NCBI GenBank assembly: GCA_964187785.1
Contig: OZ076409.1
Span: 62,374,001-62,438,000 of the forward strand
Direction: 5' to 3'
Length of the DNA: 64,000 nucleotides
Source of the DNA: Amphiscolops sp. MND2022
Lineage: Eukaryota
Positions within the stretch are counted from its first letter, which is position 1. The number at the start of each line of letters is the position of its first letter. Positions 32,661 to 64,000 of the stretch are shown here, piece by piece. A program made the position numbers and the translations under genes. Below the pieces are notes generated by a model. That model saw only the letters and a program-made list of their open reading frames with translations. It was not told the origin of the DNA and ran no database searches.

Positions 32661-33043
32661 TTATAGACACAAAAAACTTAGATATTCTGAACGTCTCAGT
32701 CAATATGGACTGTCTCTTAGCCTTTTTTCCTATATGGTTACAAAAAGTAGCCCTCATTGAATTAAAAAGACTCGCTAATCGGTATTTTTAAGGTGGAGGG
32801 ACTGAAGAGCCGAGTAGGCTCATCCCCTGTCAAAATTAAAGTTTATATTGAAACAAATGCCATTTTCTTGTTTTTACAACATTCATTTAAATAAACGTTG
32901 CTTTCCTGGTCAATGAATAGCCAGGGTTTTCTCAGTGGATCAACAAGGCTGTTTTTCTGAAGTAAACGTTGAAACCGCCGTTGTATGATTTGGTTATAAT
33001 TAATGCCTGATCGAAAAGTCTTGATGAATGCTTGTTTTGTTAG

Positions 33044-33234
33044 GCAAAATGGTGCACCAACTAGCTGCGAGGGCTATCATCCGGGACTGGGAGACAAATG
33101 CAATCCTGCACACTGACAAGTCCACTAACGAAGTCGTCAAAAAGCAGCTCAAACATACCATCATCCAACTCAGCAAACGTCATCAAGTGATCACGCCTTT
33201 TACCAGTTTTTTGGCTGTTGAAAAGCGAGAAAAG
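33044..33234 (+). CDS. PARP4: PARP4 exon 15, ITIH-like (MVHQLAARAIIRDWE..VITPFTSFLAVEKREK)
   Basis: Conserved PARP4/VWA5 motif; phases 1/0. Confidence 0.94.
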
Positions 33235-33475
33235 GTTGGTAGAAAAAGTCTCCTAGGGCCATCATATAGGAAAATTAATTGTGTAATTGCAGGAACTGCC
33301 AATAGTATTAGGAAGTTACCGAAAGTAATGACATAATAGTTTCTCACGGTTACTTTAATTTCGGGATTTATCGGTAGATTGGCATCATCATTCAATTAGG
33401 TGTAAAATATGCTGTTATAGAACAACGCCGTTTTTATTCATTATATTTCCTCCTCTTTCACTGATGAACCTTTAG

Positions 33476-33580
33476 AATGAAAAAACCAGCATGGATATGA
33501 AGTTCATTCAAGAAGTGGTTGCTAAAGAGGGAGTGGATTCTTTGGAGTATATTGGCTGGGAGAATGAAGTGATAATCAAG
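33476..33580 (+). CDS. PARP4: PARP4 exon 16 (..EVVAKEGVDSLEYIGWE..)
   Basis: Resembles PARP4 ELIAKEDVDFLPYMSW; tttag acceptor, gttagc donor, phase 0. Confidence 0.88.
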
Positions 33581-42128: not shown

Positions 42129-42344
42129 ATTCTACTTCAGTGTCTGTTTAGATTGAAGAATGCCAAATTGAGCGATGGTGAGAAGGCAGAAGATGCTTAT
42201 AAAGACAAATTGGATAAGTATTTAGTGCCAGAGATAGAACGGAATGTGGAGCTGAAAGTGATTCAACTGACTGGCAAACAGACTCACTTTGTGTTTAAAC
42301 GTTATCAAAGTGTGGCTGAAGTCAAGGACACCATCTACGAAGAA
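42129..42344 (+). CDS. Exon: linker plus ubiquitin-like domain N-half (VELKVIQLTGKQ..VAEVKDTIYEE)
   Basis: LTGK and VK motifs of the ubiquitin fold; phase-0 acceptor at 42129 (alternative 42141); donor gttagt. Confidence 0.82.
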
Positions 42345-43181
42345 GTTAGTTTGGCTCTTTTGTTACACCCCCCCCCCCCCCCTCCTCCACCATCAAAATT
42401 TTTTGGGAAAATTAGTGGAAATCTTATAACAAATAGACTTGAATACAAACAGAAAGCTTCAGTTTTAAATTTATTCTCAGGGTGATAGTTTAGGATTGAA
42501 AGTTTAGATACAAACTTTGTTCACACTTTTTCCCTATGTAGTTACGCATTTTTGGTGAAGAAATCAACAGCTTCCTGTTTTGAGTCATCAATAAACACAC
42601 TCAATACGAGAATAATTATAGTCAAAATGCGTGAACAATGTTTTGTTCGAGCGGAAAAACTACTCCAATACAAGTTAACTTCCTGTTATGAAAGAAGGTT
42701 TACTTTTAATTAGGCTAGTCTAAAGTTTTTAAGGAAAGTTTTTCAGAAAATCGTATGTGAGAAACTGTAAAATTAGAAAGTAGCAAGCAATGTGCTTTTA
42801 ATTTTGTTTAGCAAGGTAAAATAAGGAGCATTTTTATCCTTTTGTTGGACAGGGTGTAGATGCAGTTGCTGTAGAAGTTGGGCGCCATTATGAATTCGTA
42901 GGGGTACTTTTTAGCTTTCTTTCGGTAATAGGATTTGTCAAGAATGTAAGCTTATGAACTTTACTTTTGAGTCTTTGCTTGAGTCAACCTTAGGCGGTGA
43001 TTGTTGAAAAACCAATGATTGAGTCAGTCTTGTCAATGAAAAGTCGTAATGCGAAGTAGTAGTAGTAGTGAGCCATTGATTTCTCCATTACATGATTAGT
43101 TTTTTATAAAATTTTCATTATCTCTGCGATAGCAGGAATATTATTGAAACCTCAAGATGCCAACTTTTTTATAATAAATCT

Positions 43182-43592
43182 GAGGGCATAAGTCGGCGCC
43201 CGTCTTAAGGCTGAAAAAGCAAAAATACTTCGAAGCGTCAAGGATTCTCTTTTTATTATTTCTGCGATAGCAGGAATATTATTGAAATCTCAATTTGTCT
43301 ACTTTTTTTTCAGTGTAATTCTTCGCACGATATTGAAAATATCAGATATTTTGTTCGGCAGTGACTATAAGCGTGAGAATTAATTTTCTCAAGCTGCCGA
43401 CAACAATTCAATTCTTATGCGATGGAACGAGCGAGTGATAATTATGCATTCGTACGCTGACGTCATTGAGATGAAACGAGGGAATGTTCGTAATTATGCT
43501 TTCGTACGCCGAGTTATTGAGATGAAGCGAACGAGTGTTAATTATTCTTTCACAGAGAGCTTCGCCTGCATTCAAATGCGAATGCGAAACTT
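43182..43592. repeat. Dispersed repeat, highly similar to 63490-63897
   Basis: agggcataagtcggcgcccgtcttaagg ... gcttcgcctgcattcaaatgcgaatgcgaaact in both copies. Confidence 0.85.
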
Positions 43593-44429
43593 TAAAGCAG
43601 AAATAGCAAAAAGCAAAAACTTTGAAAGATTAAAGCAGAAATAATAGTGTGCCCCGGGCCTATTTGTTATTGTGGTACCCTATTTTAAAAAGGATGTTTT
43701 TCTATAGGATCTCATGTAGGGCTTTTTGCAAAATCCTACGTCCTTTCACCACTGCTTTTAAAAAGCCCTCATTCAAATAGATCTAGCATATCTGAGAAAG
43801 AATTATGCGTCGATCTTACATTGTTCTATCGCTAGAATTTGGAGCATGTGAATGTCGGATAAAACTTACGGACCATGTCATCTATTTCCCCCCAAAACTG
43901 CGGCGGGGGGTAATAAGACAGAAGGTTCAAATACCATTATGTCGACATCATTTGCGTTGAAATTTTGGTCCAATAAAATAATTGATGTTAACATAATCCT
44001 ATCCATTACATTAACTCAGTTACAAGCTTCTCATTAGATTTTATAGCGGTCAAAATTTGCGTTGAAATAGGGGGCTTTTTAAATACATTTTTAGCTTGTT
44101 TCAAACGTAACTTTCTGCTATTTTGGACAGTAATATCAAAAATTATTGTAATTTTTTTGCCTGAAGTGTTCAAACAGTTGTAGAAACAATCCTCTAAGTA
44201 TTTACATTCATATAATATTCTCTTATTAGTGAAATATTTTTATTCAAGAACAAAATGTGTTTTCGTGTTTGGGGGATATTCACAACAAGGTATACCTGGG
44301 GGGGGGGGTAGATGACATGGATCAAACTTACGCGACCTTGTTTAATAACGTTATGAAAATGTCATTGCATTTTTTGTTAATCGGTGGTTGCACATACGAA
44401 AAGCAAAAGCCAAAGTTTCGTTTTTGCAG

Positions 44430-44592
44430 GAAGGAATTCCGCCAAATCAACAGAGGATTGTTTTCAAAGGAAGACAACTACAAGATGAACAAATCCTGAA
44501 TGACCTGGACGTGCAGAATGGCGACACTTTTCACATGGTGATGAGACTCAGAGGTGGATATATTGACCCTACAGCTATTCCAGACAAAAGTG
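44430..44592 (+). CDS. Exon: ubiquitin-like domain C-half (EGIPPNQQRIVFKGRQLQD..HMVMRLRGG-YIDP..)
   Basis: Clear ubiquitin similarity; ttgcag acceptor phase 0; frame continues past GG to donor gtaaga phase 1. Confidence 0.92.
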
Positions 44593-45018
44593 GTAAGATT
44601 TTTTTCGAGATATGAGAACTGTCTAGCGAAACTATGTATTCTTGTTGTTTCAAATTGGTTGGGAGCCATGTCAAAGTTTTTGCTTACAAAAATGTTGCTA
44701 TTAAGAAACTTTCAGAAACATGATTACTTTAAAATGTTAGTTTGTTTAGAGGGGATATTGTTTTCAAGGTTCCGCGTTTTATGAACGTTTTCCCCATCTT
44801 CAGCTTCTGCTGAACTCGCGCTAATCCATGCTTGAACTTTTCTCATTTCTTGTTCATTCTGTTGAGCTAGTACCTCACGAGTTTTGTGCAAAAGTGTGTG
44901 GAGCACTGCTTTGCCTCGGTGTCGAAAATGCAAATTGATATCCGATACCAGTGAGACAACGTAGTACGACAGTAAGAGTTTGCTGACACTGGTAGCATCA
45001 ATGCAGTTTTGTATTCAG

Positions 45019-45159
45019 AATTGGGCCGTACAGTAATGGTAGACGCTGGCTCGTACACTGTGAAAGCTGGACTTGTGTCTGAGGGTGGATCAACTGTGGA
45101 TGCCATGTGCAGTGATATAGTGGAAGTCAGAAATGTCGTTGGCCGGCCCAGACATCAAG
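45019..45159 (+). CDS. Exon: actin N-terminal-like segment ([22 protein letters not shown])
   Basis: Matches actin phosphate-1 loop DxGSxxxKAG and VGRPRHQ; attcag acceptor, gtaaga donor, phase 1/1. Absent from the ORF track. Confidence 0.9.
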
Positions 45160-46450
45160 GTAAGAAGAGCACTTGAGGATGGATAGTCGTCTTTCCCTTG
45201 AGGATAGTAGTGAAGAACTACTAGGGATCGCTTTGCTCGAAGGGCAGGTAGGAGAGGTGCTTACTTGCAATCAGAAAGTCGGACGTTTCGAAAAACTTAC
45301 AAATGCCATTTTTTTGCTCATTAAAAAGCTCTCAGTTGTTTCAAAGTGTCCTGCGATCCATCAAAAGTTTTGGCTGCTTGTTTTCAAATGTTACACATTT
45401 GAAGTCTGAAATTTCTATTTTTTTTGGTTTACTAGTATTAGCATATGACTGTTAGAGGACATATGACATCTCGATTCGACCCTTTTTTTACTATTGGAAA
45501 GTTCTAATTTTCCATTATATTATTTACTCCAACCCATTCACTTCATATGGGAGAAGAAAATTCACCTATCCGCTTGCTTTTTCCTAACAATTATTGCGAA
45601 GGTCCAATTTTATCTTCGTAAAGTAGTCAAAAGACAATGTTCGTAGCGGGCGTATTTTTGAAAATTCGCGTGTCTCGCTTTTCCTTCGAGTTTTTCACTT
45701 TCAAAAAATAGCCTACTAAAATTTGGCGCTATTTGAGAACGACAATGTTGGGGAAACTCAATGACTGAAGAATCGCCATTCGTATGGAAACTACATCAAG
45801 ACAAATTCGGTTGTCGTTTTCAGATTTCGCAAAGCTTTAATGTAACTCGTGGAATAACGTCAACCAATTACCATGACCCAGTTTCTTGTCCCTGCATCTG
45901 ACAAAAGTCCTCAGGGGATGAATTACTTTTACGTCTCGGAGTTTATCCCCGTGCTTGTTGATGGATTTCTTCGATTGAAGTGAAAAATCAGCTGTTTAAT
46001 TATAGAAACTTCGCTCTCATTTTCGCTCGGAATGAACGAGTCTGTTTGCAATAGCTCCAATCATTCGGGGGGGGGGGGGGGGCTTTTTCCGTTCGATACA
46101 TGAAAAGTCTATTCGTCTTGGAAGAGTTGCTTGTGCTAAAAGGTTTTATTCACCCTGAAGTTAGTTTACTCACGAAGAACATTTTCCCCGTCTACTATGC
46201 CAATTGTTACTTTTCTTCCAGTTCTTTATTGTTTTGACCCACTTGACTAAGTAAGTTTTCTGCCTAATCGCAAACTAAATTCCCTAGTTTATCGTTACAG
46301 TTCACCTTCGAGAGGGAATAGGCTTATACAAGGAAGCTGTTGGCCCAACGTTGTAAACCATGTCTAAATTGATAACAATTTAGATGTTCCGAGTCTCGTT
46401 CAAAACTATATCATCATTACTAAGCAACCATTTTTTGACGCTCTTTTCTG

Positions 46451-47010
46451 TCGTATCATCATCGTCGTATCCATCATCAATGTAGAGGTCCACATAGCAC
46501 TGTTTGCCACCTCTCCGCCAGTCTGACAGCTTCATCTGTTACTCTCATCAGATCTCCGGTATGCAATCCACTTGCTTTGACTATGTGTGACGTCGTCTGA
46601 ACTTGTCCGCATTGACATAACTCGTCTTCGCTTACACCCCATTTTTTGAGGTTGTATTTTGATCTTCCATTGAGCGCTCTCAATCTATTGAGGCATTTCC
46701 ACGTGCTCCACTTCAGGTTTCCACCAGGTGGCAGTTCCTCACGACGGCCAGTAGGTTGGTTCTTTGAACGCTCTCTCATTTTCCAGAAACGCTGCTTGTA
46801 CTGTTCTGCTGTCATATCGGGGACGCATGTTTTGTGTAGGAACCTGTACCTCGATTTCAGCCGCCTCTCTGCTGGTTCTCGTCCGTACAGCGGGTGTCTG
46901 GAGTCAGTCTCTTGTTACTTTTCTCCTGTACTAGACAGCTCTTCCGGCGAATCATTGGCGGGGCTATTCCTGCTAGATTGTACACTGTATCTATTGGGGT
47001 GTTTTCTGTG
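46451..47010 (-). mobile_element. 3' fragment of an Ingi/Vingi-like LINE
   Basis: WKCLNRLR..GR..LKKWG..CQCGQVQTTSHIV C-terminal zinc-finger motif; gatacga-repeat tail. Confidence 0.72.
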
Positions 47011-47074
47011 AGACGTGGCCGGTACACTCAGATATGATTTCCATAACAGATTTACTGAACTGATGATATGATTA

Positions 47075-47697
47075 CCAGAAATTTCGTCGTCAGAATATTC
47101 GTCGTCGATAATTAAGATCTATAATCCGTCGCATTTTCTCTAATCTAATAAGAATCATTTCATTAATGAGTCCTGATAATTATCGAGTCTTTGTAATTAT
47201 CTCAATAAGTATCGATAATTGTGCAATTATTGCTATCATTGACTACTTTTACTTGTGGTTTTGAAAGAAAAAGTTTCGGATCATGCTTAGCAACCACCAA
47301 AAAGATACATTTTGTTTCTTAGCCCCCCAACACAAAGTTGTTTCGACACTTAAAGCAAAAATTTCCAGGATTTTTTGATAATTATCTGACAAAAAAGCAA
47401 AAATTCACCCCTGGGACAAGTTTAAATTGTATCGTAAAGCCCTGGTAAGTAGTTGAAACACCGTTAAAATACTTCAGGACTGAAAATTTCTCGTTGCTCC
47501 TGATAAGTTGATTGAATGCAATTAACTTTTTGACTCAATTCCGGTGTCAAAATGAAACTTGTTCTTAAGATCTCATTCTATTAATTAAATAATAGAATAA
47601 TTATAATGGTATCTTTCCGTGAACGCTGTTGATTCTGGATTAGCTAATACGACGAAATTTCTTACGACGAAATTTCTGACGACGAAATTTCCGCCTT
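47075..47697. mobile_element. MITE-like element
   Basis: gaaatttcgtcgtcagaa ... ttctgacgacgaaatttc inverted ends. Confidence 0.6.
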
Positions 47698-47704
47698 CCG
47701 ATGT

Positions 47705-48125
47705 TTAAGAGTCTAAAAAAATTTCGACTACTTTATGCAATCCTTTTTTTCTCCCAACCTTTCAGTGAAAATTTCTTAAAAACTGTCCATACGATTTCCA
47801 TAAAATTTTGCTGTTATTCTACACCCAAAGGTGCCCCTGTGTGCACAATGTTATCAAAATGGTATGACTGGAATGTGAGAAACATAGCCAAATTTCACCC
47901 TAAAATGGCCAAAAAACAGCTGTTTTTGGACTTTTTTCGATTTTCTCAAAAACTGTCCGCACGATTCGAACGATATTTCTATTTCAGGGTCATTCTACAC
48001 TATATTCTACACGCTTCATTCTACACTATCTTAGGGTCATATAAGCGCAATTTCATCAAAATCGTATGACTGGGATTCGAGCGAGTCAGAAGAAGAAAGT
48101 CATTATCCGACACCGGCTCTGGTTT
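47705..48125 (+). mobile_element. HINE-like family B copy
   Basis: Shares aaaactgtccatacgatt / aaaatggccaaaaaacagc units with 20986-21512. Confidence 0.68.
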
Positions 48126-48890
48126 CTATACCTCGACGAAATCATTTATGGCGTGCCTTTTAAAAGTTTCAAAGATGACATTCTCTATTATGGGGTGACT
48201 TCTTACTATTATTCTTTCGTTTCATGGCATCAGAAAGTTTTCCATGTCAACTTAACGATTCCACAACGGAAGAATACACGCTCGATCACGTTTAGTGCAA
48301 TGAGTGCAATATCAAATACCGATACCCTGAGTTGTTTTGTGGCCTACACTTTTTTTAGTTTCCGTGAACCTTTTGTTTTAAAATTTTGATGTTTGATTTT
48401 CTTTTACTAGTTCTATTCCGTAGTTTGAGAATGACTTTTTTGCGTTCAATTGCCTCTTCGAGCTTTCTTCTTATTCTCTTAGGTATTTGAATTTCTCAGT
48501 CAAAAGGAACGAAACTCAAAGACGCAACTTCATGCAAAAAAAAATTGATGACTTCATATTTCATTCTTGAACTACTGAGAAGAACTAATGAAAAAGTAAA
48601 TCAAGTTTTTTCTGACTCGAACTTTTGTATCACTTCATTGTGAAAATGGTGGAACCGTTTTCTGATTATGTTGGATCTTGACGTTGGATGTTTAAGTTGG
48701 ATCTTCACTGCGCCTCTTGACATGCAATCACTTTTTTGACGATAATTTGTCGGTCGCAGATAGATTTTTTTGTTTCTAGTTTATGTGATCATTCATGTGA
48801 TTGGGAATCAGTTTTTTAAATTTCTACCTCTCTTCTTGCTATGGAATTTTTTGAACGCCACTTCTCGAAGTCACTTTTATTTTCTTGCAG

Positions 48891-49025
48891 GCGTGATGGT
48901 TGGCATGGGACAGAAAGATAGCTATGTTGGAGCGGAAATCGACCCTGCATTTCGTTTGACAAAGCTTGCAAAAGTTGAAACAAAACTCCGGAGCGAAGCA
49001 ACAGACTCAGCTGATTCAAACTCAA
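48891..49025 (+). CDS. Exon: actin D-loop ([14 protein letters not shown]) then non-actin sequence
   Basis: Exact actin D-loop sequence directly after a ttgcag acceptor; donor gttagt; phase 1/1. Confidence 0.9.
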
Positions 49026-49754
49026 GTTAGTGACATTCACTTTCATTCGATATTATTCGTCCTAAAATGAGATCATTGAAGATTCATCTTACTGTGTTTC
49101 TCAAGATCGTTCAAGTTTAAAGACAAAAGTTTCATCAGACTAAATTACTTATGTTCAAAATCGATACTTGGGACCTTTCCAAGAATGACACCGATTCAGG
49201 ACTGAGCTGTTCTATACACTGCAAGTTGGAGGGCTATTTTGCATTGTCAATAAGCTTTCCATTTACTGCAATCTCGAAAAATTGCCTGGAAGTTGAATTT
49301 AAAAGCTGTAACAAAAGTGGAAAGTTCACCTGAAAAAGAACAACCAAAATTATCATGCTTATCACTTGGTTTCGCAAATCTACTGGTATATAGAAAAGAT
49401 TTTTTATGGAAGGTATGATGAATGTAACTAGTCGCTCCTCTGTTGATGAAAAACCTGCGATGGTCCGCGGAAGTATCCCTGCATCTAACGTTTTCGAATC
49501 ACCACGTGCTTCGACCCAGTCGACAAAACGACAAAGGTCTTTCAAAGGTTAAATCTAATCTATAAAGAAAACAGTTCGTTTCCGTTGTAATCGTTTCCGT
49601 TTTTTGTCGAAATCTTCTTGACCTGGAACAGAACATAAATGGAGGGCAAAAAGAATATAAAAAGTGCCTCGACGTGGATATTAAATGTGATAATCTATGT
49701 TGAAGATTTTTCAAGGTAACCTTACCTTGTAGAACAACGCTCTTGAAAGCATAA

Positions 49755-50605
49755 ATAACAAACCGGGAACGGCTCCGCTCAAGGTTCAAAAAGTGAAGTT
49801 TTTTGAATATGCAAAAGGACACTATTGTTGAAATTTCATTGATTTTCCCATGCCAAAAAATACCCCAAGGTATACACGGATACAGAAGACTCGAAAACCA
49901 CTTTTTCTCCAACTTGAAACAACAGAAATACTATTTCATGAAGTGAAACGCGACTATTATAGTGACTTTTCTTTTTTTTCAATCCACACGAACTGACCAA
50001 AATAGTTCTTGGAAGTTCTACAAAATATTTTGCACCAAATTGCACCATCTGGCCTAGCGAACTGAACCAACAAAAACTTTTCCTGTTTTCCCGCGTAACA
50101 TACCATACCAGGCGAGACCAAAGGGTCCCCCTTTCAATTTTTTTCGGCACTGCGAGACTTTTTTGCGGAAAAAAAATCCCCAAAGGGTCCCCTTTCAATT
50201 TTTTTGCTGTTTTGCGACAGAATGGATGTTGGAAAATCCCAAAGGGCCCCCTTTCAGTTTTTTCGGCACTGTGAGACTTTTTTTCCAAAATTTTTTTCTC
50301 TCCAAAGGGTCCCTCTTCAATTTCTTTGATATTTTACAACAGATTGGGTGTTTAAAAATCCCAAAGAATCCCTCTCCGTTTTTCGGCATTGTGACACTTT
50401 TTCGAAGTTTTGTTTTTTCTCCAAATGGTTCCCCCATCAATTGCGACAAAAATGTTGACTATTTCGGAAATGTCCTCCTTCTTTTAGCGCGCCAGGGGCT
50501 CGCGCTAGCGGGCCCCGGCGCGCCACTCGGTCCATTTATTTGGTTTTTCGATTTTCGAGTACTGTAAATTGACACTTGGGAGTCCTTTTGCTATTTTTGA
50601 GCCTA
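49755..50605. mobile_element. Nested or compound family A repeat copies
   Basis: Repeated ttttcggcactgtgagact / aaagggtccc cores. Confidence 0.6.
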
Positions 50606-51845
50606 TTAATTTCGCAAAACGTTTTTCAAGCCAGAACTTTTCTGAAAAGTGAAGCGGTGCCATTTCACCGACAGAACTGTTCTCTGAAAATTGCCGAACA
50701 TCTTTTGCACAAGAACACAGAATGATGAAAGCTCATGTTTTTTGTCAGCTTTGCTAAAGGAACTCTTCGAGAACCCTGTCAATGCTCAACAAGCGGGATC
50801 TCTACAAGTCAACAATCCTTCCTAGTGTTCTTTATGCCAGCTGATTTCGAATCCCGTCAAAATCTGACCAGAGAACTTAAATGAATTGGTGAGATGGATT
50901 GTACCCCAGAAGTCTTATTGGCACGCCTTATGCTACTTGAACGTTCTCCGGATTCCTGACTTTCAAGTCCATAAAGATCTACTTACCTTATCCAGTATCC
51001 TGATCGGAAATATAAATTGAGATCAATCCTTCAGACGAGAGGCCTTTCATCTTACCCAGTGTTAGATACGAGTTGCAACTTTCATTTAACTGGTATCGTA
51101 CCTGTCATTTTGCGAATTTGATATGGAATAAAGTGTTTCTGGCAACCAGGACTAAAAGCAAGAATTCTGAATCTAATGTGGATTTTCATCAATAAAACTT
51201 TTAACGACATCTCAACCTGCACCTGGACTTTCATTTGTCCATGTAACTTTTGTCGATTTAGAAATCCTATCTCTGAACTCAAGACGGTGGCATTTTGGGA
51301 GAAATTCCTTCGCTTATGCATAAATCCTTGATAATAATAATTTATATTATCATTGAGAAAACTCTAATCAGTCCTACAGGACTACAAAATAATCAGAGTA
51401 CCCTTAAAACTGGGAAACCGGTTTTGCTAAATCGGAAACTTCTCGAAAAACGAAAATATCAGGAAACGATACTTCGAAAATTGGTGCAATAAAATAAAGA
51501 GGACCCTTCTGTTTTGAAATGCTTTTGTTTTTCATGTTAAAGGCTTTGGATGCGTTCAAACTCACATATTAAGTGCATATCGTGAAAGTGCACAGTGTAC
51601 AAAAAATGGACCTTACAGAGTGAGACTAGTCACTGTAATTGTCGGGCTCTTTTTCTTAAGTTGAAAGCGCCTACTGAAAGTTACATAGCAATAATGAAGC
51701 ATTAAAAATACTTCCACAGACTCGAAATATGCCGACCAGAACAAAATGCTGGAGCCTTTTTTCTCGAATTCCATGCTTGAATCAAATAGACATGTACATC
51801 GCCTCTTAAAACGAAGTCGTCTGTTTAGTTTGATCAGGAAATTAT

Positions 51846-52662
51846 ATTTTTAGTCGGCGCTTTTCTTTAGAAATAAGTGATTTTGGTCATGGTTTTTTCA
51901 TCAGTTTTTTTCGGTACACCTGAACTAGCCGAAATAGTTCTTCCGAAGTTTCTTCAATTTTGGCTAAGTTGGTAACTTCTCACTGCCACTCGGCGTTTAT
52001 AGTAACCCAGATTTCTGAGAAGCAGGGGCACTTGGGTTTGAGTCTCGCACTAAAGCAAAAGTTTTTGTATGTTTGAAAAAGTAAGAGGGAGACCAAATGG
52101 TTCGGTTTTGACCCTATGCAACTTTTTTCAGATTTTTTTCAAACCTAAACTCTCCCTTGATTTCCAGCAGAAACAAAGCGTTTTGCGACTAAGAGCGCTA
52201 TACGACTTACCGAAGTAAAAAATATTCGAAATTTTTACAATTTTTAGTGTTTTGAGACTTTTTGTAAAGGAAACATGTTTCCCGAGTCTTGAGATTGACC
52301 TCTTTTTTACTTTTCGATCATGTGGAACTGATGAGTTTTCTTGATGATTTTCTGAGTTTTCTTTTCGGCTCTGTGCGTCTTTCTTTCGAAACTAATTTTT
52401 CGAAGGGTATCCCCCCTCGCTTTCGTAGCTGATTTCGAGAAAGTAGTTTTGCGAGCTGGAAGCTCTTTTTTGGCACTGAGACTTTTCCGCAAAAATTCGG
52501 AAATTTTTTTTCTAGTTGGGTTTTGCGACTTTTGTGCCTATCCCTTGGGGGCATTTTTTAGGCACTGAGAAATTGAAATGTTTTAAAAAGGTGTCCTTTG
52601 CATATATAAGAAATCTGGTTTTTTGAAACATGAGCGGGGCGCCGACTTGGAGACCCTTGTTT
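51846..52662 (+). mobile_element. HINE-like family A copy (opposite orientation)
   Basis: tttttagtcggcgc ... ggcgccgacttgg; interrupts a duplicated intron segment in a T run. Confidence 0.72.
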
Positions 52663-52721
52663 TCGGACAAAATTTTGTTTCTGTCTTTTTCTGTGCCTCT
52701 AGTATGTTTTCGTTTTTGAAG

Positions 52722-52898
52722 AGCTAATGTTATCTGATGCAGCTTCTTCGCCATCCCGTGTACAAGCGTTTCCCCACCCCGGAGCTGTCATGGCACCCCC
52801 TCCTTTGCTTGGAGCTTGTATGACACTCCCTCCACCACCTGCACCTGTCATGGCACCTCCTCCACCACCTGCAATTGTCATGGCCCGTCGTGCACCAG
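52722..52898 (+). CDS. Putative polyproline exon, copy A (duplicated; may be alternative or non-functional)
   Basis: ttttgaag acceptor, APVMAPPPPP repeats, weak donor gttaca at the duplication junction; phase 1/1. Confidence 0.55.
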
Positions 52899-53165
52899 GT
52901 TACATAGCAACAATGAAGCATAGAAAATACTACTACAATAGACTTGAAATAGACCGACCAGAGCAAAATGAAATGCTGGGGCGTTTTTTTTTCTTGACTC
53001 ATTCCTACATTCTTGAATTAAATAGACGTGTACATTGCCTTTTAAAACAGAGTCGTCTGTTCAATCAGTAGTAATTTTGATCAGGAAATAGTATTTTTCT
53101 CTTCAGACATGATTTTGTTCATGTCTTCCTCTTTCTGTGCCTTTAACATGTTTTCCTTTTTGAAG

Positions 53166-53570
53166 AGCCCATGTCATCGCGTAGAGCTTTCTCGCCACCT
53201 CGTCTACGAGCTTCTTGCCACCCCGGAACTGGCATGGAACCTCCACCACCTGCACCGGTGATGGCACCTCCTCCCCCACCTGCACCTGTCATGGCCCCTC
53301 CTCCGCCACCTGCTGCTGGGAGGGTACCCCCTAGAACTGACATGGCACCCCCTCCACTGCTTGGAGCTTGTATGCCACCCCCTCCACCACCTGGAACTGG
53401 CATGGCGCCCCCTTCACCACCTGCAGCTAGCATGATGTATTCTAGTTTTTCTGTACACTCGAAGCAAGTTGAAGCAGCGTCGCAACCACCACGGCTATTG
53501 GCAAGCGCCGAAAGCTACGATGAAATTGCTTGTCTTGATTCACTCTTGCAGTCAGCCACAGTTGAAAACG
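53166..53570 (+). CDS. Polyproline exon, copy B (MAPPPPPAP repeats)
   Basis: ttttgaag acceptor, open frame, donor gttagc; phase 1/1. Confidence 0.8.
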
Positions 53571-55492
53571 GTTAGCTAAAATCCAGAATTTAACTTGGCG
53601 GCATCACTCAAGTTCAAAATAGAAAACATCAATAGATGGTGACCTTTTTAAAGATATTCCTTCGACGTGGAGTTTTTTGTTGATCAGTTTCGAAATAAGT
53701 AAACTTTATGCCAATTCTAACCATCGTTCAAACGATGGTGAGAAGTCAGAGGCGCCTTAGTTGACCACTTGACAGAGCTGTGAATTTACATACGAGCCTT
53801 GAATGTCTCGAACAACGTACTAAAAGAAAATGTTCGAGTGTTGCCGAGGTTCCGAGTATTGAAACACTGAATTTCTGTTGGACAAAGTTCTATTTCTCGG
53901 AGATGACCATGGGGATGTAACTTGTTAGATTCGGTAGATCTCTTTCGTTAATTTATCGACAATTTGTCAAACAAGTGTCGAATGAACCAACTAGGAATTT
54001 TTGAAAAAGCTAACTACCAATTTTACAGAAATTTTGCATTAATTTATCACCTGCAGCAAAATTCAGCTGCCAAAAAACCACACGAACTTGAAAAGTTCCA
54101 AGTGAGAAGTTTTCAAATTAGAAAGAAGCCTTTAGAAGTAATGAAAGCGTTTTCATCCTTTATCCATAATAAAAGTTAAACTCTTATTGAAAAATAATCT
54201 AGTGGAAGAAAACTTGAAAGCATCGGAAACTCTTTAATTGAACACACAAAGTGGAGAAAAGTTCAGAGAATTGTAGAAGTATTGAGAATGTTCTCGACAT
54301 GTTCAACGAGTACGATATCGCAGCTGTCCGTGTAAGATCCCACCTAAAGGAGTGGGAACAAAAAATATCGCCTTGTACTGTGAGCCAAAGAATCGGAATA
54401 ATTGGGTAATCCCCCCTGACTGTTGCCGCTAATGGTTACTGAAACAATCCAACCTGTCACTGTCTAGTGTTGGTACCCGGCGGAGGAGTCACCAATTGCT
54501 TTCCGAAGAGTACCGAAGTGCAGTATAATCTTGTTTCAGGAAGTTTGGTACTATAACCCTGAATCGGAGCCATTGATCGAAACTGAATTTTTTCATTCGC
54601 ATCCAATCACATGGTTGATTTACCTTCCAATCTTTCCGCGACAGAAATCTGATAGATTGAATGTTGTTTTCTCCTCACAGGTGACGGCATTTGAACATAA
54701 TGATAAATAGTACTCCTTCAATGATCGGAGCTGCCCTTTTTTGCATACTGTGCCTCGAGTATATTTCAAATCAATTGAGGGGCAAAATGATGCTTCTTTG
54801 CTGCGGAAAACGAGTCTTCAAGTGCTAAAATGTCATTAACGAAAGCCTGGACTATCATCATAGCCTTAAAATGCCCTGATTTTTCCTTTATCTTTTTTGC
54901 CAATTTCGAACTTTGTCCCAATTTGATCATAATATTTTTTGGTTAAGTCTATGTTTGTTCCAGCAATCACGCGGAGTTTTTTCAACTTTTTTTCGTTCCG
55001 GTGTTTCTCCCGGTTTTTTTGTAAAAATTTCTAGTTCATAGCCATGGCTAAACAGCAGTCAGAGATTCTCTTCTTGGAACAATGAGTAACTTCTCGATGT
55101 TCATGCTGCTGCATTATATGGGCTGAAATGAGAGCAAGAAACTGTGTTACCGGAGTGATCAGACTTGTAGCAATAAACGGCACTTACTTTGAATAGTATC
55201 GAGCGGTCGAAATGTTTCGTTCACTCTACTTGCGCTGTTGGACTTCTCAAAGAGTAATGATTTCTCCACGGAACGTTGAAGTAACTGCTTTGGGTTTGAT
55301 TTATTTCTGCACCAACTGGAAAGACTGAAGTTTGAATCTCGAAAGCAGAAAAGATATGCTTCATAAAAAAGAAGCGTTCGAATCAACTCATGATTTCAGA
55401 AGCTGACTTCTGCATCAAAAAAACTAACGCTTCGTGGGATTTCCAAATTTTTGCAGCTCTCATAATTTCACAGGGAAAACCAAACGCTTCTC

Positions 55493-55739
55493 ACCCTAAG
55501 CTTTTTGAAAAAGTTTCTTAGTTACTAGAGGTGCACTGGACAGGAAAATTTTCGTCCGGCTGGACAGGACTGATTGAAGTCGAACTTCCGTATCTTTACA
55601 AATTGAGATGACAATGTCGTTTTTGGACAATGTTAAAGATACGGAAGTTCGACTTCAATCAGTCCTGTCCGGCCGGACGAAAATTTTCCTGCCCAGTGCA
55701 CCTCTTGTAACTAAGAAGCTTTTTCAAAAAGCTTAGGGT
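55493..55739. repeat. Near-perfect foldback (MITE-like), ~105-bp arms
   Basis: accctaagc..cttccgtatcttt / aaagatacggaag..gcttagggt. Confidence 0.88.
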
Positions 55740-56472
55740 AGACATTATTTTTTAAAGAATTTTCAGTAATCTGTGGTCTAATTTCGCCTTATTGAGGGAG
55801 AAATTTTGGGAACAAGTTTCTACTTATGAATCCTAAAGTAATTCTCTTTAAATATTGAACTACATCTAATCACAATGATTGTTCGTTCTGGCTTTCTTTG
55901 TTTCCATTACAATGCGAAAATATCAGAGACAATTTACTTACTGCTATGGTAATTGGAAATGGTTTTTTCATTCTACTCTATCTACATATTTAGAAAAGTC
56001 ATCGCTTGAAACTTCTCACTAATTTGTCTCAATTTCCAAAGTTTGCCGTTTTACCTGTAGTAGTTTTCAGAAAGAGCTGATGTCTTGGCGCAGTTTTGCG
56101 GTTTAAGTAAGTAAGTAGCAAACTTTACAATTTCAAAATGATGTGGATTTGATAAATCTCTCGTTGTGTTGGATGTCGGAAGACAATCGGTGAAAACCTG
56201 TTGACGGCGCAATATTCACATCTAGTATACTAAATTGGTCTTAAGTGTGCAAAAATTGCCTTGAGTTTTAATCATGAACCCAAAACATTGTACTAACCGG
56301 CAAGTTTCCATTGCTGACGTCTTAAAATCTCAAAAGAGAGTCGTCAAACTTCGTATTTGGATTGATTCAATGGAGATGAACTTATTCTGTGGACTCTCGG
56401 TTCAAAATTCCTAGATTCGATAAAACGGCATTTCGGATCATTTCTTGGCGTGCTTCACATTGTGTTTTGAAG

Positions 56473-58110
56473 GAGTCGAATTGAACAGTTTACCGGGCAA
56501 CCTCACAGAAAGTGAAGAGGATCTCCCAATAGTTTCTCCCAAAAAACTGCCCGTTTCAATTGCTTGTTCTGACGATGATATATTTAACGAACCTCTAACG
56601 AACCAAATTTTTGGTAAAAAACAACCACGTGGAACCGCCAGTGGCTCAGTTGATGGGCAACCGCTTAGCAACATTCAATTTGGATCGTCATCGGCTCAAC
56701 CAACCAGTGGGGGTTTGTTTGGATCAGCCTCCGCACAACCGGTTACTGCGCAACTGGCTAGAAGCAATCTTTTTGGGTCTTCATCGACCCAACCAGCCAT
56801 TGGGGGATTGTTTGGATCAGCTGCGCAACCGGCTAAAAGCAATCTTTTTGGGTCTTCATCGACCCAACCAGCCAGTGGGGGTTTGTTTGGATCAGCCTCC
56901 GCGCAACCGGTTACTGCGCAACTGGCTAGAAGCAATCTTTTTGGATCTTCATCGACCCAACCAGCCATTGGGGGATTGTTTGGATCAGCTGCGCAACCGG
57001 TTAGCAGTAGTCTCTTCGGATCGTCGTCAGGCCAACCGGCCAGTGGGGGTTTGTTTGAATCAGCCTCCGCGCAACCGGCTAGAAGCAATCTTTTTGGGTC
57101 TTCATCGACCCAACCAGCCAGTGGGGGTTTATTTGGATCAGCTGCCGCGTAACCGGCTAGCAAAAGTCTCTTTGGATCGCCATCGGCCCAACCGGCCAGT
57201 GGGGGTTTATTTGGATCAGCTGCTCCGCAGCCGGCTAGCAAAAGTCTCATCGGATCGTCATCGGCCCAACCGGCCAGTGGGGGTTTATTTGGATCAGCTG
57301 CTGCGCAGCCGGCTAGCAAAAGTCTCTTCGGATCGTCATCGGCTCAACCGGGCAGTGAGGGTTTATTTGGATCAGCTGCTGCGCAACCGGCCAGCAGTAG
57401 TCTCTTCGGATCGTCACCGGCTCAATCGGGCAGTGGGGGTTTATTTGGATCAGCTGCTGCGCAACCGGCTAGCAGTAGTCTTTTTGGATCTTCATTGGCT
57501 CAACCGGCCAGTCGAGGTATGTTTGGATCAGCTGCTGTGCAACCGGCTAGTAAAAGTATCTTCGAATCGTCATCGGCTCAACCGGCCAGTGGCGGTTTGT
57601 TTGGGTCAACTGTTGTGAAACTGGCTAGCGAAAGTCGCTTTGGAACATCAGCTATGCCGCCGGCCAGTAACAGTACATTTGCGGCCGAATCTCATGATAG
57701 TACTTTTGGATCATTTTCGGCTTCATCAACTGGTTCTGGTTTCGCATTTGGATTTGGTTCCTGTGGTGAAGAAAGATTAGCTTCGAATAAAATTTCCAAA
57801 TCTGGTCGAATGAGAAAATCTAAAATGAGTTCTTCGGAATGTTTTCGTGAGCTTGCGATTGGCTCAACTGACGACGTCAATCCCTGGTCAGGATCAACTT
57901 TATTTGGTGGCCCTTTGCGGAGTGGCTCTGTTTTACATAAAATGTCTTTGGAAAGTGCAGAACGTTCACGTGTAAAAAGTATGATGTCTCCTGATTCGTG
58001 TGAACTTGGACAAAAAAAGCCGGAAATGAAAATAGTTTCTGCAGAAAACTGGACTGCCGTATCTGACAATGCTGCTACGCTGAACCGTGAAATGGTTGAC
58101 GAAACCGAAC
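56473..58110 (+). CDS. FG-repeat exon (GGLFGS/SLFGS, nucleoporin-like) with in-frame TAA at 57150-57152
   Basis: ORFs 56445-57152 and 57495-58115 share one frame; 1638 nt, phase 1/1; ttttgaag acceptor, gttagt donor. Confidence 0.78.
56680..57610 (+). repeat. Coding minisatellite, alternating ~36-nt units (QPASGGLFGSAAA / QPASKSLFGSSS)
   Basis: Tandem caaccggc..gggggtttatttggatcagc units directly visible. Confidence 0.95.
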
Positions 58111-58281
58111 GTTAGTTGATAGAAACCCTCTGTTCAGTCAATTTCTAATTGGTGTCGAAGCTTTACAAAAATACGTTTAAATTTGCCTTGTTTTTGCTGA
58201 CCTTGATGAAAAAATTCAATTCACGCATTTTTTTACTGTTGACCAAATACTGAAACAGTTGATTTCTTCTCCAGGAATGCC

Positions 58282-58574
58282 AATTTTTCTAATTAGTAGT
58301 GTTCACTGAACACTACTAATTAGAAAAATTTTCACATATTTTCCTTGCATTTATGTATCATGTGCAACTCACTGGTTGTGCACTAGTCACAACCATCTAT
58401 GACCCTCCTTTTGGCAAATTATTCAAAAGTAGTCAAAGGCAACTCATTCGAAGTTCCAGTAAATTAATGGGTGATGAGCTTGGTTAGTCCAAAAAGAGGG
58501 TCATAGATGGTTGTGACTAGTGGACAACCAGTGAGTTGCACATGATACATGAATGCAAGGAAGATATGTGAAAA
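58282..58574. repeat. Perfect 24-bp-arm palindrome abutting an ~85-bp-arm inverted repeat
   Basis: aatttttctaattagtagtgttca-c-tgaacactactaattagaaaaatt; ttttcacata..gaccctc / gagggtc..tatgtgaaaa. Confidence 0.88.
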
Positions 58575-59243
58575 TGAGGCGAAGTGTAAATGATGGTACA
58601 AGATTCAAGCAGGTTGTTTGAATTGAATGTATACAATAAGTCGTAGCTAGACGTCCCCCAAAATGATACCTGGTCAAAATCTCTGTTGTATTACTCTGTG
58701 TTCATCCTTACGGCACGCTTCTCGCCCCTCCAGGATGACCTTCATCAAGACCAGCCGCTGGAACACTACTAGCACGTCTCTAACGTGTCTAATCACGTTT
58801 TTATCGTTTGACTTTAACTCGGGAGGTTTTGAGCTGACATACCTCCTACTTCCATTGGTTCCATCACCGAAGTTTCCTTTAATGCAATTAATTGAAAACT
58901 TCTGAACAGTTTGAGGATTAGGTTTGCAATGGAATTAACGGATTCCTGACAAGTAGAACGGAATGAATCCAAAAAGTTCCATTTCTATATGATTTTACTC
59001 GAGATCCTACTACATTATCATGAGATACATCATGCATGGAAAAGTGTATATACGTCAATTCTCTGGTTAACAAAAATTCAAAGGTTGCTTCAATTCGAAG
59101 TCTTAAAGTACCGGGGGTTTGAAAAATATGCAAAAATTGATTAACGGGGTTTCTATTTGTGGCAGTAAATCAGCATTCGTGTTTTTATTTTCATACCAGT
59201 CATACCAGACTTCTAAGATGAAACTGTTTCTTTTCTATTACAG

Positions 59244-59515
59244 AAGCTGTCTCAGAACAATTGGATGCCGAATTGACTTCATTAACTCCAACAGAAGCTT
59301 ATGGGGGATTTCATCTTGTCGAGGGAGACTTTTCCAAGCATTTGGAAGCAATGTCTTCAGAACTGGATAGACAATCAAAGCAGCTATCGAGCATTTCGAG
59401 GCACACTTCAAGTATTGGAGGAGGCATTGAGGAGAGTCTGAACAATATTTATGACCCGTCAATAGAAGATACTGTTGATGAAGCAATGGACGAGAGCGAT
59501 AGTGAATGCGAAGAG
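59244..59515 (+). CDS. Acidic exon (..DPSIEDTVDEAMDESDSECEE)
   Basis: ttacag acceptor phase 1 fits the preceding exon; donor gttggt. Confidence 0.72.
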
Positions 59516-59849
59516 GTTGGTTGCTTTTTGTTATTTCTATTTTACATGGAATGCTCTTTTGATTGCTGAGTTCAAAAGTTGCCGAAACGTTGACGCTCTG
59601 TTCAAAATATTCAAATTAAATCTAAGTTGTTGATAAATAACTACAGTAGCATCGATGCTACCAATCAGCTCTTGAGAGAGCATTTTACTGTTATTAGTTC
59701 TGCGTTGGCTGGAGTATTATAATATAAAAAGGAACATTTTATCAGACAAGATCGTCTGTAAAATTGTTCAGTTATTCACGATCTAGCTAATCTAGGGCAG
59801 CAAAATCTGTTGACATAAAACGAACAAGTGTTTACCATATAGTCGTCGT

Positions 59850-60260
59850 TCGCTGAAAGCATAATATCTGCCCCGTTGTCCCAGTCGATTGGGGCTGGCG
59901 GGCGCCCTAAATTAACAAGCGCCAATTGTCTGTCGCAGTCCTGAGCAACTCGTCACTTTGCCCCAGGTCTTTCGTAGTCATCATCCTCCCACTGACAGAT
60001 TGTATTCAATTGAAGTTTGCGTCTCGCTGGAGTATAGTAGTACAGGTCGGATGCACAGTGTAGATAATTCCTCTCTGCCTCAACGAGAAACCTCGCTTAT
60101 CTCGGAATGCTAAATAAGACTTCCTTCTTTATGCAGTCTGCGATGGCTATTTTCATACCATCCTCCGCGCTCAGTCAGTCCCCAAGGTAGTTGAACTTCC
60201 AAATCCCCAAAACGATTAGTGTCAACTTCTGATAGAGGAGATGCTGATCTAGAAAATCGA
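59850..60260 (-). mobile_element. RTE-like LINE RT C-terminal fragment
   Basis: KFNYLG and IRPVLLYSSET on the minus strand. Confidence 0.62.
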
Positions 60261-63200
60261 CTTTCGTTCAACTTACGTTAACTAGACATTTTAATTTGAA
60301 TCTTCCACCGTTTTTGTCTCGGCGAAACCTAATCGAAAAAAGATCCGAAATTCGTTGTTACAGTGGGTCTGAGTGAAACAGGTCAAGAAGGGCCCAAGTC
60401 GGTGTCCTGATAAAGGCTAAAGGCCAACGTTTAACACCAATGACGGAAGATGGCACACTTGAGTCTCGGGAAACGCTTTTTCTCAAGTGAAAACAAACTC
60501 AATTTGTGGTAAAAATTCGGAAAAGTTGCACAAAAAACTTACGTACTCCTGCTTCCAGGCCCATTTAGTCAGACACCGGCAGTAATCACTAGACCAAATG
60601 GCGAGTACTTTTCAATCAATCTAGTAGTTTCAACCAAAATCTGAAAGGAAAAACGAAGTTTTTTTTCTTTTCAAAGTTTAATGCGTCGCTTCTTCCTACA
60701 ATATGGGACAAGTTATACTAATTTTTGTGAGGAAACGAACGTATGGCAGTTCAGTAACTCCTACAACATCGAACGCTGGAATTTCGGATCTTAATCTTAA
60801 TTTCAGGATTATGCTGATTTGTTTGCACCAATAACTGAAGCATCCTATAGACGGTCTGCAAAACCATCAATGTCCTCGGAAACGACACGTTAGTGGCATG
60901 CATTTATATACTGTTACCGAAAAATTATAGTCAACTAATAACTGAAGCGAAAAGTTCGAAATTCATTGATTTTCTGGATGTTTTAGTTAAAATTTTCAGG
61001 AGCAAGTCTCGCTGAATTCGATCTTCATCACAATGATATTTTGTTTAGCTTTTAAACCTAATAATTTAAAATTATTATTCACAAAAAAATTTAATGAAAA
61101 ATAATTCAAAATTAAAATAAGTAAATCACAGCCTACACGAGCTGATGAGATTATTATTTTACTGAATATTCCACAAATATTTTAGTTTAGGTTTTCCAAC
61201 GATGTAAATTGGGTCAACTATTTTCATTGCAGAATTGATTCAATCTGTTTTTTTTTCATTTCTGAAGTCAACTAAGCATTCACGCTGAGCTTCGATTTTT
61301 GATATGGCTAGATTTAGATTTTCAGATTCTAATTGTTCACTGTTTCTCCTAAAGTGAGTAAATCTCAAAGAATGTTTCGACAAGGTGTTCGCTTCAGGTC
61401 CGAAACTGAGATCGCCTGTGCTGAAAGCAGACATATCAGATGCCAGTATGTTATGTAATGTAAAAGTACGTAAGCATTTATTTTCATCGCAATAAGTTGA
61501 GTTTTTGTGTGTTCTCAAGAGGTTGGGTTATCTTTGTGTAATGGATGAAGCATTCGGTCTGTATCGAGGCGGGTGGTATCAGGGTGGAATCTGTCTAATC
61601 ACCGTTGTTGAATCTTGAGCAGGTCCTTCATTCTTAGCTTAGTGGTGTTGCCGTGACGCATTTGGTGAAGGAAAAGCAATTTTTAAACAAGATGGGGGAA
61701 CATCTCAAGTCGGCCCCCACTTAAGGCTCAAAAAGTGCAAAGTTTTTAAAAATGCTCAGGAAATGTTTTACGAAAACTCACATAAAAGCATCGAATCCCC
61801 CGAAGATTTCATGCTGGGACGAATGGGTTCGCTTGTTTTCGAACCTCCGCCTCGATTTCTCCCCTTCAAGAAAACGCAATATAGTTCGGATATAACGTCA
61901 AAAATTCGAATAGTGTTGAAAAAAATTATTGGTCGATATTTATTGAGAATTTCACAAGAAAAATGAGAATTTTGAAACTGTCCCATAAGGCCGAAAATGT
62001 GAAAGGCGGGACCCTTTGGGTTTTTTACTATCCATTTTGTTGCAAAACATCAGAAAGATTAAAGGGTGCAATCCAAAAATTTTCAAAAAGTCTCAGTGTC
62101 GGAAAACTAAGTGGAAAACGCCAAGATAGCAAGTCACGCTGAACTTTTAGCTTTGAGCTGATCTCTGATAAACCACTTGGCTCAATACTCTCGAGTTACT
62201 TTTTCTAATATGAACTCCGTGGCTGAATTGGTTGTGGAAATTTTCTCGAAAAAATGTTTCCCGTAATTCGCATAGTGCCGAAAACCCTAATGGGTCCTCT
62301 ATGCTCGCAAGACGTTTGGTTCCTAGTGAAAATCGAGGGGACGCTTCGACAAAAACAAATTTTGAAAAAGTCGCATAGTACCAAAAACGCCGGTTTTTTT
62401 ATATAGCGCAACCTCCGCCTCCTTCTTAGTAGAACGCAATTTATTTCGTATATAACGTCAAAAGTTCAGATATAGCGTGCTGAGACAAATGTGACCTTTT
62501 TTGGAACTCCCATCTCCTCCTTAGTAAAACGCAATATAGTTCGGTCATAACGTCAACAATTCGAATATAGCGTGCTGGCTAGCCAAATGGTCTTTACCGT
62601 ATAAATAATATTTGCTCCATCTGTTCTCCGTAAACGTGGACGGATCAGAGCTACTGGAGAAAATTACAATCTAGAAGGAGCGAATCGTGGTTATTGAAGA
62701 ACATCTAAAGCACCAAATGATTGGTATCGTGATAAAGGTTATCTCATTTGCGAATATTGAATTTCGCGTTGGAACTTCATATCTTACATTATAGTTTGCA
62801 CCAGAAGCTTACATCTGTTGAAACTGAACAGATACAATTGAGTCTGAACCTCCGTGAGTTTTTGAACAAATATCTCATTCATATTGAAGGGGGAAAGAGG
62901 TCGGGGAAAGAAAAAAGATCCCGAACATGCATTTGATTTCATTGTAGGCATCGTACTATGTTTGTTATTCCTCTTTGATTGCCATCTATGTTGGAAAGCG
63001 AAACAAGGTGTAAATACCGTTATGTCGAGATCATTGTGCAAAATTTTTGACCGATAAATTGATTGATGTCGACTTAATCCAATCTTACATGTTGTTCATT
63101 TTATGGCGGAGAAACTATGTTGAACGTTTTTGAAAGTATAGTCCTTTGATAAAAGCATGTTTCCTCTATTTGAAGAACGCTCCATTTTTTGCTGATATCG

Positions 63201-63489
63201 TAGCACTATTGCTTGTCAAGATTCCATTTTTATCACATGATTATAGAGCCTTTTTCTACAATTGCTCAAAGGTCTTAACAGATGACATTTTGAACGCTCG
63301 GAGACGCGTCTGGCTAGAAATTTCAAAACCTACTTTATATCCACCTTTGCATTTGTAACTTGCTACACTTGAAAGTCAATGTGTTGATGAAGGAACAATT
63401 TGATATGATGATCGAATTGCTTCCCCAATTCAAATTTCATTTTCAATTATGAAGTTTTCGGGTCAGGGTTTGGAAAAATAAGAAATTTA

Positions 63490-63897
63490 AGGGCATAAGT
63501 CGGCGCCCGTCTTAAGGCTGAAAAAGCAAAAATACTTCGAAGCGTCAAGGATTCTCTTTTTATTATTTTTGCGATAGCATAATTATTATTGAAATCTCAA
63601 GATGTCTATTTTTTTCAGTACAATTCTTCACACGATACTGAATAATTCAGATATTTGTTCGACAATGACTGTAAGCGTGAGAATTAAATTTCTCAAGGTG
63701 CCGGCAACTATTCAATTCTAGTGCGATGGAACGAGCGAGTGGTAATTATCCATTCGTATGCTGACGTCATTGAGATGAAGCGGGCGAATGTTCGTAATTG
63801 TGCTTTCGTTGCCCCGAGTTATTGAGATGAAGCGAATGAGTGTTAATTATTCGTTCGTTGCGAGCTTCGCCTGCATTCAAATGCGAATGCGAAACTT
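63490..63897. repeat. Dispersed repeat, highly similar to 43182-43592
   Basis: Direct sequence comparison. Confidence 0.85.
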
Positions 63898-64000
63898 CGT
63901 CTACGCTTAGTAGTTATATTTTCTTTAGTCCGAGAAGAATTAAATGCGGTGTAAACTTGTACAGTGATTACATGTAATTGTGCTCTAAATAATGATTAAA

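Follow-up and report, generated by a model that had tools for sequence, protein, structure and literature searches.

Introduction

What the vault and PARP4 do has been an open question for decades. PARP4, or vault PARP (clade 5), commonly shows the order BRCT-(WGR)-HD-ART-VIT-vWA-ITIHL-linker-MVPID, in which HD is the helical domain, ART the ADP-ribosyltransferase domain and MVPID the C-terminal MVP-interacting domain. In human PARP4, a disordered tether stretches through the vault lumen from the C-terminal anchor (PMC12280208), and Suskiewicz et al. (2023; PMC10450202) raised the possibility that viral cleavage takes place in the human linker and alters vault association. Domains appended to PARP4-like proteins were described by Perina et al. 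(2014; PMC4245714), who found 14-3-3 in the lancelet, the sea urchin, Capsaspora and amoebae, actin or actin-binding domains in Capsaspora, Salpingoeca and an amoeba, and ubiquitin-related domains in Acanthamoeba, and who interpreted them as links to signalling, ubiquitination and the cytoskeleton. Here, we describe a PARP4 gene of Amphiscolops sp. MND2022 with a series of host-protein-like modules in its linker. It lies in a window of 64,000 nucleotides (G000:C1:62374001-62438000; contig OZ076409.1) of the 1.07-Gb assembly; all coordinates refer to this window and to its plus strand unless stated otherwise. On the basis of sequence comparison, we lean towards the view that the disordered tether which links the ITIH-like region of PARP4 to the MVP anchor represents an integrated bait array assembled from essential, conserved host proteins.

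The integrated decoys of plant NLRs (PMC4759884, PMC4759852) are similar in that a protein with an enzyme has received copies of host proteins which pathogens target, with turnover specific to lineages. They differ in that PARP4 has neither NB-ARC/NACHT nor leucine-rich repeats (LRR) and its output would be ADP-ribosylation; its baits are many in series, often short tails and in some cases very old, and their recognition of effectors is putative. No Pfam family of an NB-ARC/NACHT-LRR scaffold was found in the exons or in the relatives scanned; the PARP4 array is not an NLR and works at most like an integrated decoy. A likeness also exists to the NLRP1 and CARD8 tripwires and to the bait region of alpha-2-macroglobulin, where disordered, cleavable, host-like sites lie beside an effector or a cage. 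In contrast to these, PARP4 lacks FIIND, CARD and thioester, and its baits are recognisable protein copies, several of them suited to binders or modifiers rather than proteases. The same position in the protein is taken in mammals by exon 30 of PARP4, a fast-evolving region under recurrent positive selection and a proposed pathogen interface (Daugherty et al. 2014, PMC4038475). That exon was interpreted as binding viral factors directly, and the mammalian linkers in our sample contained no recognisable host-protein copies.

A preliminary description of this DNA knew of no earlier account of the architecture; the 14-3-3, actin and ubiquitin-related appendages are, however, already contained in Perina et al. 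(2014; PMC4245714). Compared with section 3.1.2 of that paper, the new elements are an actin fragment of ~65 residues conserved only around the D-loop, the arrangement of modules as arrays, and the P-stalk, heptad, H3, SNARE, HSP70, Snf7 and FG modules. A literature search, which covered few subscription papers and no supplements, found no published description of the array, of conservation restricted to the D-loop or of a bait or decoy role.

Modules in the linker of the Amphiscolops PARP4

Between positions 33044 and 59515, 12 exons were identified, all of which have AG/GT ends and compatible phases; five consecutive exons are of phase 1-1. Pfam matches, splicing and phase confirmed the ubiquitin-like, actin, polyproline, FG and acidic exons that the preliminary description had placed after the ITIH-like region, at about the same coordinates. 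The direct junction of the ITIH-like core to 42129 had to be corrected. Two exons (38840-38989 and 39597-39766) intervene, and since they precede the ubiquitin-like domain (UBL), its frame-compatible acceptor is at 42152. The junction 33580>38840 was fixed by the orthologue of Convolutriloba macropyga, which reads across it without a gap. Together, the two exons encode a helical module (38840-39766) which matches the orthologue (0/2000 shuffles reach the score) and occupies the position of the C-terminal half of 14-3-3 in many relatives, while itself being too diverged to be assigned. A 14-3-3 identity was not supported for this module, as the profile gave a non-significant independent E-value of 7.2 for the protein and Pfam gave no match.

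The UBL (42152-44592) is encoded by exons 42152-42344 and 44430-44592 and was recognised by Pfam in the frame of the second exon (ubiquitin, E 6.3e-15). It is strongly diverged from the ubiquitin of the same genome, retains Q40, R42, I44, T66 and H68, and ends with RLRGG followed by Tyr. The next module (45019-49025; exons 45019-45159 and 48891-49025) was identified by alignment to actin and to PARP4 relatives as an N-terminal actin fragment with an intact D-loop. Singly the two exons are weak, the first being without a match in PDB and the second matching actin 43-59 with E 0.12. When spliced, they are identical to the genome's own actin over residues 35-55 and align with five further PARP4 proteins (E<=3.5e-11). 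The intron of the fragment (45159/48891) is of phase 1 and lies inside the Gly42 codon; one actin gene of the genome (L034) has a phase-0 intron between Gln41 and Gly42, one base away from this position, and the other actin genes checked have no intron there.

Two polyproline exons (52722-52898 and 53166-53570), both of phase 1-1, are tandem duplicates of each other. Their shared acceptor sites and 5' sequence (52690-52870 and 53135-53315) point to a recent tandem exon duplication, and they are possibly alternatively spliced. The following exon (56473-58110, phase 1-1) consists of FG-nucleoporin-like repeats with periods of 39, 78 and 168 bp (Nucleoporin_FG, 1.8e-22 and 2.4e-24); Pfam matches of this exon to DddA-like and PCF11 families were below cut-off and were taken as low-complexity artefacts. 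The acidic exon (59244-59515) weakly resembles the region of the orthologue preceding the P-stalk motif, the score being reached by 28/2000 shuffles with the uncertain next exon included. Its likeness to SNAREs was rejected (103/2000 shuffles; the genome-wide SNARE scan gave no match here), as was a P-stalk likeness of a downstream acidic exon (282/2000 shuffles), a motif that does occur in the orthologue.

The Convolutriloba RefSeq protein (2672 amino acids) has the order core, helical module, UBL, actin, FG, polyproline, P-stalk and C-terminal domain. The UBL and actin inserts for which the preliminary description had proposed a search in orthologues are present. The modules agree between the two genes, and so does their order, except that polyproline and FG are swapped. 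The orthologous UBL ends with RLRGG-Pro, the actin fragment is partly duplicated and the FG stretches are FG-like repeats. Five RefSeq isoforms differ solely by deletions late in the linker.

Conservation within the modules

The actin pieces of PARP4 proteins span about residues 5-70. In a set of 29 fragments, one per chosen taxon or record, identity to actin was 0.48 for residues 7-22, 0.51 for residues 23-34, 0.94 for residues 35-55, which form the D-loop, and 0.40 for residues 56-70. N12 was kept in one of the 29 fragments and G15 in none; five fragments found without an actin query had the same invariant core. Similarity to actin past residue ~85 was detected in none of 168 linkers. A partial oyster orthologue was modelled with AlphaFold2 (alignment of 28 rows, mean pLDDT 68.7); its diverged flank formed a small beta-sheet (pLDDT 72-84), and the invariant D-loop was unstructured (pLDDT <50). 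The conserved loop is thus disordered and its flanks are diverged, indicating that selection keeps an exposed recognition sequence. The bacterial enzymes grimelysin and protealysin of Serratia cleave actin at Gly42-Val43 of the D-loop, which also touches neighbouring actin subunits (PMC7311988).

The internal C-terminal GG was kept in 22/26 ubiquitin modules, and Pro followed directly in half of the GG-bearing ones (11/22), compared with a Pro background of 6.8%. Ubiquitin-Pro resists ordinary deubiquitinases. These residues bear on an endogenous damage sensor, in which the baits would report host proteases, oxidases, kinases and deubiquitinases unleashed by stress or cell death, and PARP4 would be released or activated without a pathogen. 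We regard such a sensor as improbable. Host enzymes act on D-loop methionines, the ubiquitin tail, the C-terminal domain (CTD) of RNA polymerase II (Pol II) and the H3 tail, and the Tyr after the UBL of this gene would allow host deubiquitinases to cut; the frequent Pro after GG, however, argues for their avoidance, and turnover between lineages is typical of conflict more than of stress signalling. Bacterial clippases cut ubiquitin before the GG (bioRxiv 2024.07.24.604956).

The tail motif of the ribosomal P-stalk is normally a free C-terminus and ends the P proteins of the Amphiscolops genome. Internal copies were found in 22/127 linkers, compared with a mean of 0.005 and a maximum of 1 in any of 200 local shuffles. 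The same peptide is the docking site for ribosome-inactivating proteins (PMC3280276). Parent functions have been lost in several ways, since actin is truncated at ~70-85 with a decayed phosphate loop and the C-termini of ubiquitin and stalk are internal. Conventional actin or ubiquitin fusions were not found either, as none of the 168 linkers contained a full-length actin and the UBL of this gene is far diverged. The modules are fragments or tails sited where their native job is impossible, and it is the recognition surface that is conserved, not the fold.

Distribution of modules among PARP4 linkers

An unbiased sample was obtained with a query of the vWA domain only against 50%-identity representatives, from which the best 150 of 925 matches were taken; the 60 sample proteins with PARP and ITIHL and at least 400 further residues were counted. 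At least one module of 14-3-3, ubiquitin, actin, P-stalk or CTD was present in 21/60: a 14-3-3-like half in 12, ubiquitin in 6, P-stalk in 6, Pol II heptad runs in 5 and actin in 3. The clade holding the four named vertebrates had no modules (0/22), and 21/38 proteins outside it had them. With a looser pattern, a stalk-like motif was seen in 2/24 rows of the vertebrate clade; P0036 and P0073, one of them from a lungfish, are the members of this clade that retain such a motif in the linker.

A second search was biased, its query containing the actin fragment, and contributed named carriers. Actin was found in four sponges, five cnidarians, Macrostomum, mussels, oysters, Dreissena, Physella, hemichordates, crinoids and one brittle star, and ubiquitin in many snails, several bivalves, Dysidea and Diplonema. 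The transcript-derived TRINITY models of Diplonema hold such modules within one protein. Dictyostelids and lancelet combine 14-3-3 with stalk and heptads; heptad runs occur in 10 linkers, and pieces of the H3 tail in Dreissena and Sinanodonta. Pfam analysis of selected proteins (27, then 8) added HSP70 (substrate-binding domain), synaptobrevin/VAMP, Snf7, EF-hand, WH2, PDZ and the Rpb1 repeat, with a match to the 60S acidic protein below cut-off. Where several modules co-occur, their order is 14-3-3, ubiquitin, actin. Presence is patchy even between paralogues and close relatives. The modules thus belong to the gene, reappear in distant lineages and change from one lineage to another, and the orthologues with such inserts for which the preliminary description had proposed a search exist across animals and amoebae.

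Some linkers showed individual features. The Mytilus edulis paralogue P0197 has calmodulin-like, Snf7, SNAP-25-like (by eye) and stalk motifs in series and no actin, unlike the other Mytilus PARP4 copy, which carries actin. In the sponge proteins P0184 and P0189, polyproline is followed by WH2 motifs and then by an acidic Trp-containing tail, an arrangement which resembles the C-terminus of WASP-type proteins. Unrelated-looking fusions of vWA with actin, one of them with WW, were noted in protist or environmental records (P0241, P0248 and P0266-P0268).

Possible bait array or scaffold

SNAREs, FG nucleoporins, H3, HSP70 and 14-3-3 are surfaces attacked by microbial enzymes. Copies of host targets are represented in this gene by the actin D-loop and ubiquitin, with more in relatives; the modules have no common pathway, yet each is an essential conserved surface of the kind attacked by microbes. 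Under the bait reading, the copies would be engaged by proteases, deubiquitinases and further effectors which microbes direct at actin, ubiquitin, ribosome stalks, SNAREs, nucleoporins and similar targets. PARP4 might then ADP-ribosylate or hold the bound effector, probably at or in the vault, or else a cut in the tether might free the BRCT-WGR-catalytic-ITIH part from its anchor. This output step, whether modification of the effector or release on cleavage, is conjectural. If the reading is true, the integrated-decoy principle would extend from plant NLRs to an ADP-ribosyltransferase of animals and amoebae, the adaptive evolution of the same tether in mammals would be explained, and the vault would gain a testable role in defence. 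With more reserve, we propose that PARP4 could be an ancient, eukaryote-wide poly-bait sensor, the vault serving as a cage that traps effectors or releases the ADP-ribosyltransferase. It is a similarly tentative suggestion that the tether may display the surfaces under attack, i.e. cytoskeleton, ubiquitin, ribosome, Pol II, chromatin, SNAREs, ESCRT, chaperones and nuclear pore; the catalogue of linkers would then read out, lineage by lineage, which host surfaces are attacked by microbes.

The modules could instead be docking mimics that recruit cell machinery to PARP4 or the vault and steer its localisation or substrates, a scaffold close to the interpretation of Perina et al. (2014; PMC4245714), in which case they would name the partners of PARP4. 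We consider such a scaffold, the main rival of the bait reading, rather unlikely, and the same applies to the partners it would have, namely actin regulators, transport receptors, translation factors, readers of CTD and histones, and phospho-clients. It would be in keeping with complete-looking units in relatives (WH2 with acidic tail in sponges; whole 14-3-3, calmodulin-like and PDZ), with the long retention of the actin piece, which suits a housekeeping use, and with the association of Dictyostelium vaults with ribosomes, endoplasmic reticulum and nuclear envelope (PMC13100048). However, proteins that are paralogous or closely related differ in their module sets (as do the Mytilus copies, or snails and bivalves), no pathway is common to the modules, and conservation falls on the D-loop and the ubiquitin tail, not on the whole fold. 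In addition, vertebrates have lost nearly all modules, yet rapid adaptive change persists there (PMC4038475).

The bait or decoy role put forward in the preliminary description is thus strengthened by the array in the acoel orthologue, by recurrence, by conservation focused on the D-loop and by target-like modules in relatives, while it is still inferential and shares the field with scaffolding. Several observations weigh against it. Every module surface also binds host partners, so that conservation fits scaffolding too, and the actin fragment, retained in place from sponges to molluscs, is stabler than many plant integrated decoys. Loss of the parent function is less clear for whole 14-3-3, calmodulin and PDZ modules. 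Modules were also found in 5/27 matches without a detected PARP domain, several of which look like fragments, and the array may be independent of the enzyme. Low-complexity stretches of polyproline and FG-like type are also present in the PARP4 linkers of vertebrates, and may be no more than common linker material. Among the 29 actin and 26 ubiquitin rows there is non-independence (they include several oysters and two near-identical rows of Macrostomum), and the actin-containing query supplied most actin rows, the vWA-only search only five. In this gene, the residue after GG is Tyr rather than Pro. The MVP residues that bind human PARP4 were reported to be conserved in vertebrates only (PMC12280208), and vault anchoring of invertebrate PARP4 is doubtful. 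Finally, a stop codon in the FG exon, described below, suggests decay or truncation in this allele.

In-frame stop codon in the FG exon

The joined frame from 33044 to 59515 holds exactly one stop, a TAA at 57150-57152 inside the FG exon, at a position that codes for Gln in each of the five other repeat units aligned. The preliminary description, which was right about the presence and compatible phases of the modules, had not reported it. Because the FG exon is of phase 1-1, skipping it preserves the frame. A search of the whole assembly for a second haplotype or copy of the exon matched the window alone, and a protein search for an intact FG exon yielded one open reading frame (ORF) of 198 amino acids from the first Met after the stop; it was uninformative, since no Met lies further upstream in the frame. 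This allele may fail to yield the full array, whose production from this assembly would require the stop to be either erroneous or confined to a minor allele.

The stop would also suit a neutral junkyard or decaying relic, i.e. a tolerant linker with symmetric phase-1 introns which captures exon fragments of abundant genes and is degenerating here. The run of five phase 1-1 exons and the unrecognisable state of the 14-3-3-like and P-stalk-like parts in this gene point the same way. We consider this very unlikely, since the near-invariant stretch of 21 actin residues, kept from sponges to acoels and molluscs between divergent flanks, cannot be neutral. Differences between the FG repeat units are mostly at third codon positions (18/35), and downstream exons and splice sites are intact.

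PARP4 core and 3' end of the gene

From a BRCT exon near 10.7 kb, the gene extends through the catalytic domain. The BRCT exons of the N-terminus (approximately 10718-11141) were detected by tblastn with the orthologue (E 1.5e-6 and 1.1e-4) and by Pfam (BRCT, E 1.3e-3). They are followed by weak WGR-like exons (E 0.19-0.41) and a helical-domain exon (E 9e-16) at approximately 22325-24457. The ADP-ribosyltransferase domain is encoded by two exons (26627-27491; Pfam PARP, 2.1e-11). In alignment to mammalian PARP4, it shows His, Tyr and Glu of the H-Y-E triad, which we take to be the catalytic residues. Seven exons (27744-33580) encode the ITIH-like region with VIT (Pfam, 3.3e-27) and vWA (VWA_3, 2.2e-9), and the exons between 26627 and 33580, when spliced, form an uninterrupted reading frame of 924 amino acids. 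By its sequence, with BRCT and HD found, WGR weakly, and the ART followed by VIT and vWA, the gene is a bona fide PARP4. The first homologue search gave rodent PARP4 as its single match. In a FastTree analysis of 104 proteins, in which deep branches were unresolved, Convolutriloba macropyga PARP4 was the sister and nearest relative (54% identity, support 100). Genome searches with the vWA exon and rodent PARP4 matched VIT/vWA in this locus only, all remaining matches being PARP catalytic domains; it is the sole PARP4 detected in the genome.

The gene continues past the window. The stretch 59516-64000 is intronic with one possible small exon (60807-60888), and further acidic linker exons lie at L002:2692-4148. 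Three exons (L002:4789-4962, L002:5541-5694 and L003:5761-5932) encode a degenerate C-terminal MVP-interacting domain and the stop codon. In a search of 1743 targets with a profile of 33 PARP4 C-termini, the three joined exons gave E 2.8e-6 and the last exon alone E 0.004. With this end downstream, the UBL, actin, polyproline, FG and acidic modules lie inside the PARP4 tether. That the downstream exons are a separate gene or unexpressed is, accordingly, hardly credible: they are in frame and on one strand between the PARP4 core and the MVPID-like end, and the orthologue and the Diplonema relatives hold such modules in one protein. An MVP gene is present on another contig.

Other features

An LTR-retrotransposon-like element, recognised from ORFs alone, apparently lies between the MVPID exons in the last intron (L003:500-4800). 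Several tandem arrays of ubiquitin and diverged ubiquitin-like units are located elsewhere in the genome (G000:C11, loci L040, L042-L044, L046 and L056). Two intronic ORFs of 117 and 158 amino acids on the minus strand (35800-36540) had no Pfam match. Degraded retrotransposon remains occupy an early PARP4 intron (12700-18000) and include integrase Pfam matches at 17011-17607, and LINE-like fragments, judged from ORFs alone, were seen at ~2500-10100.

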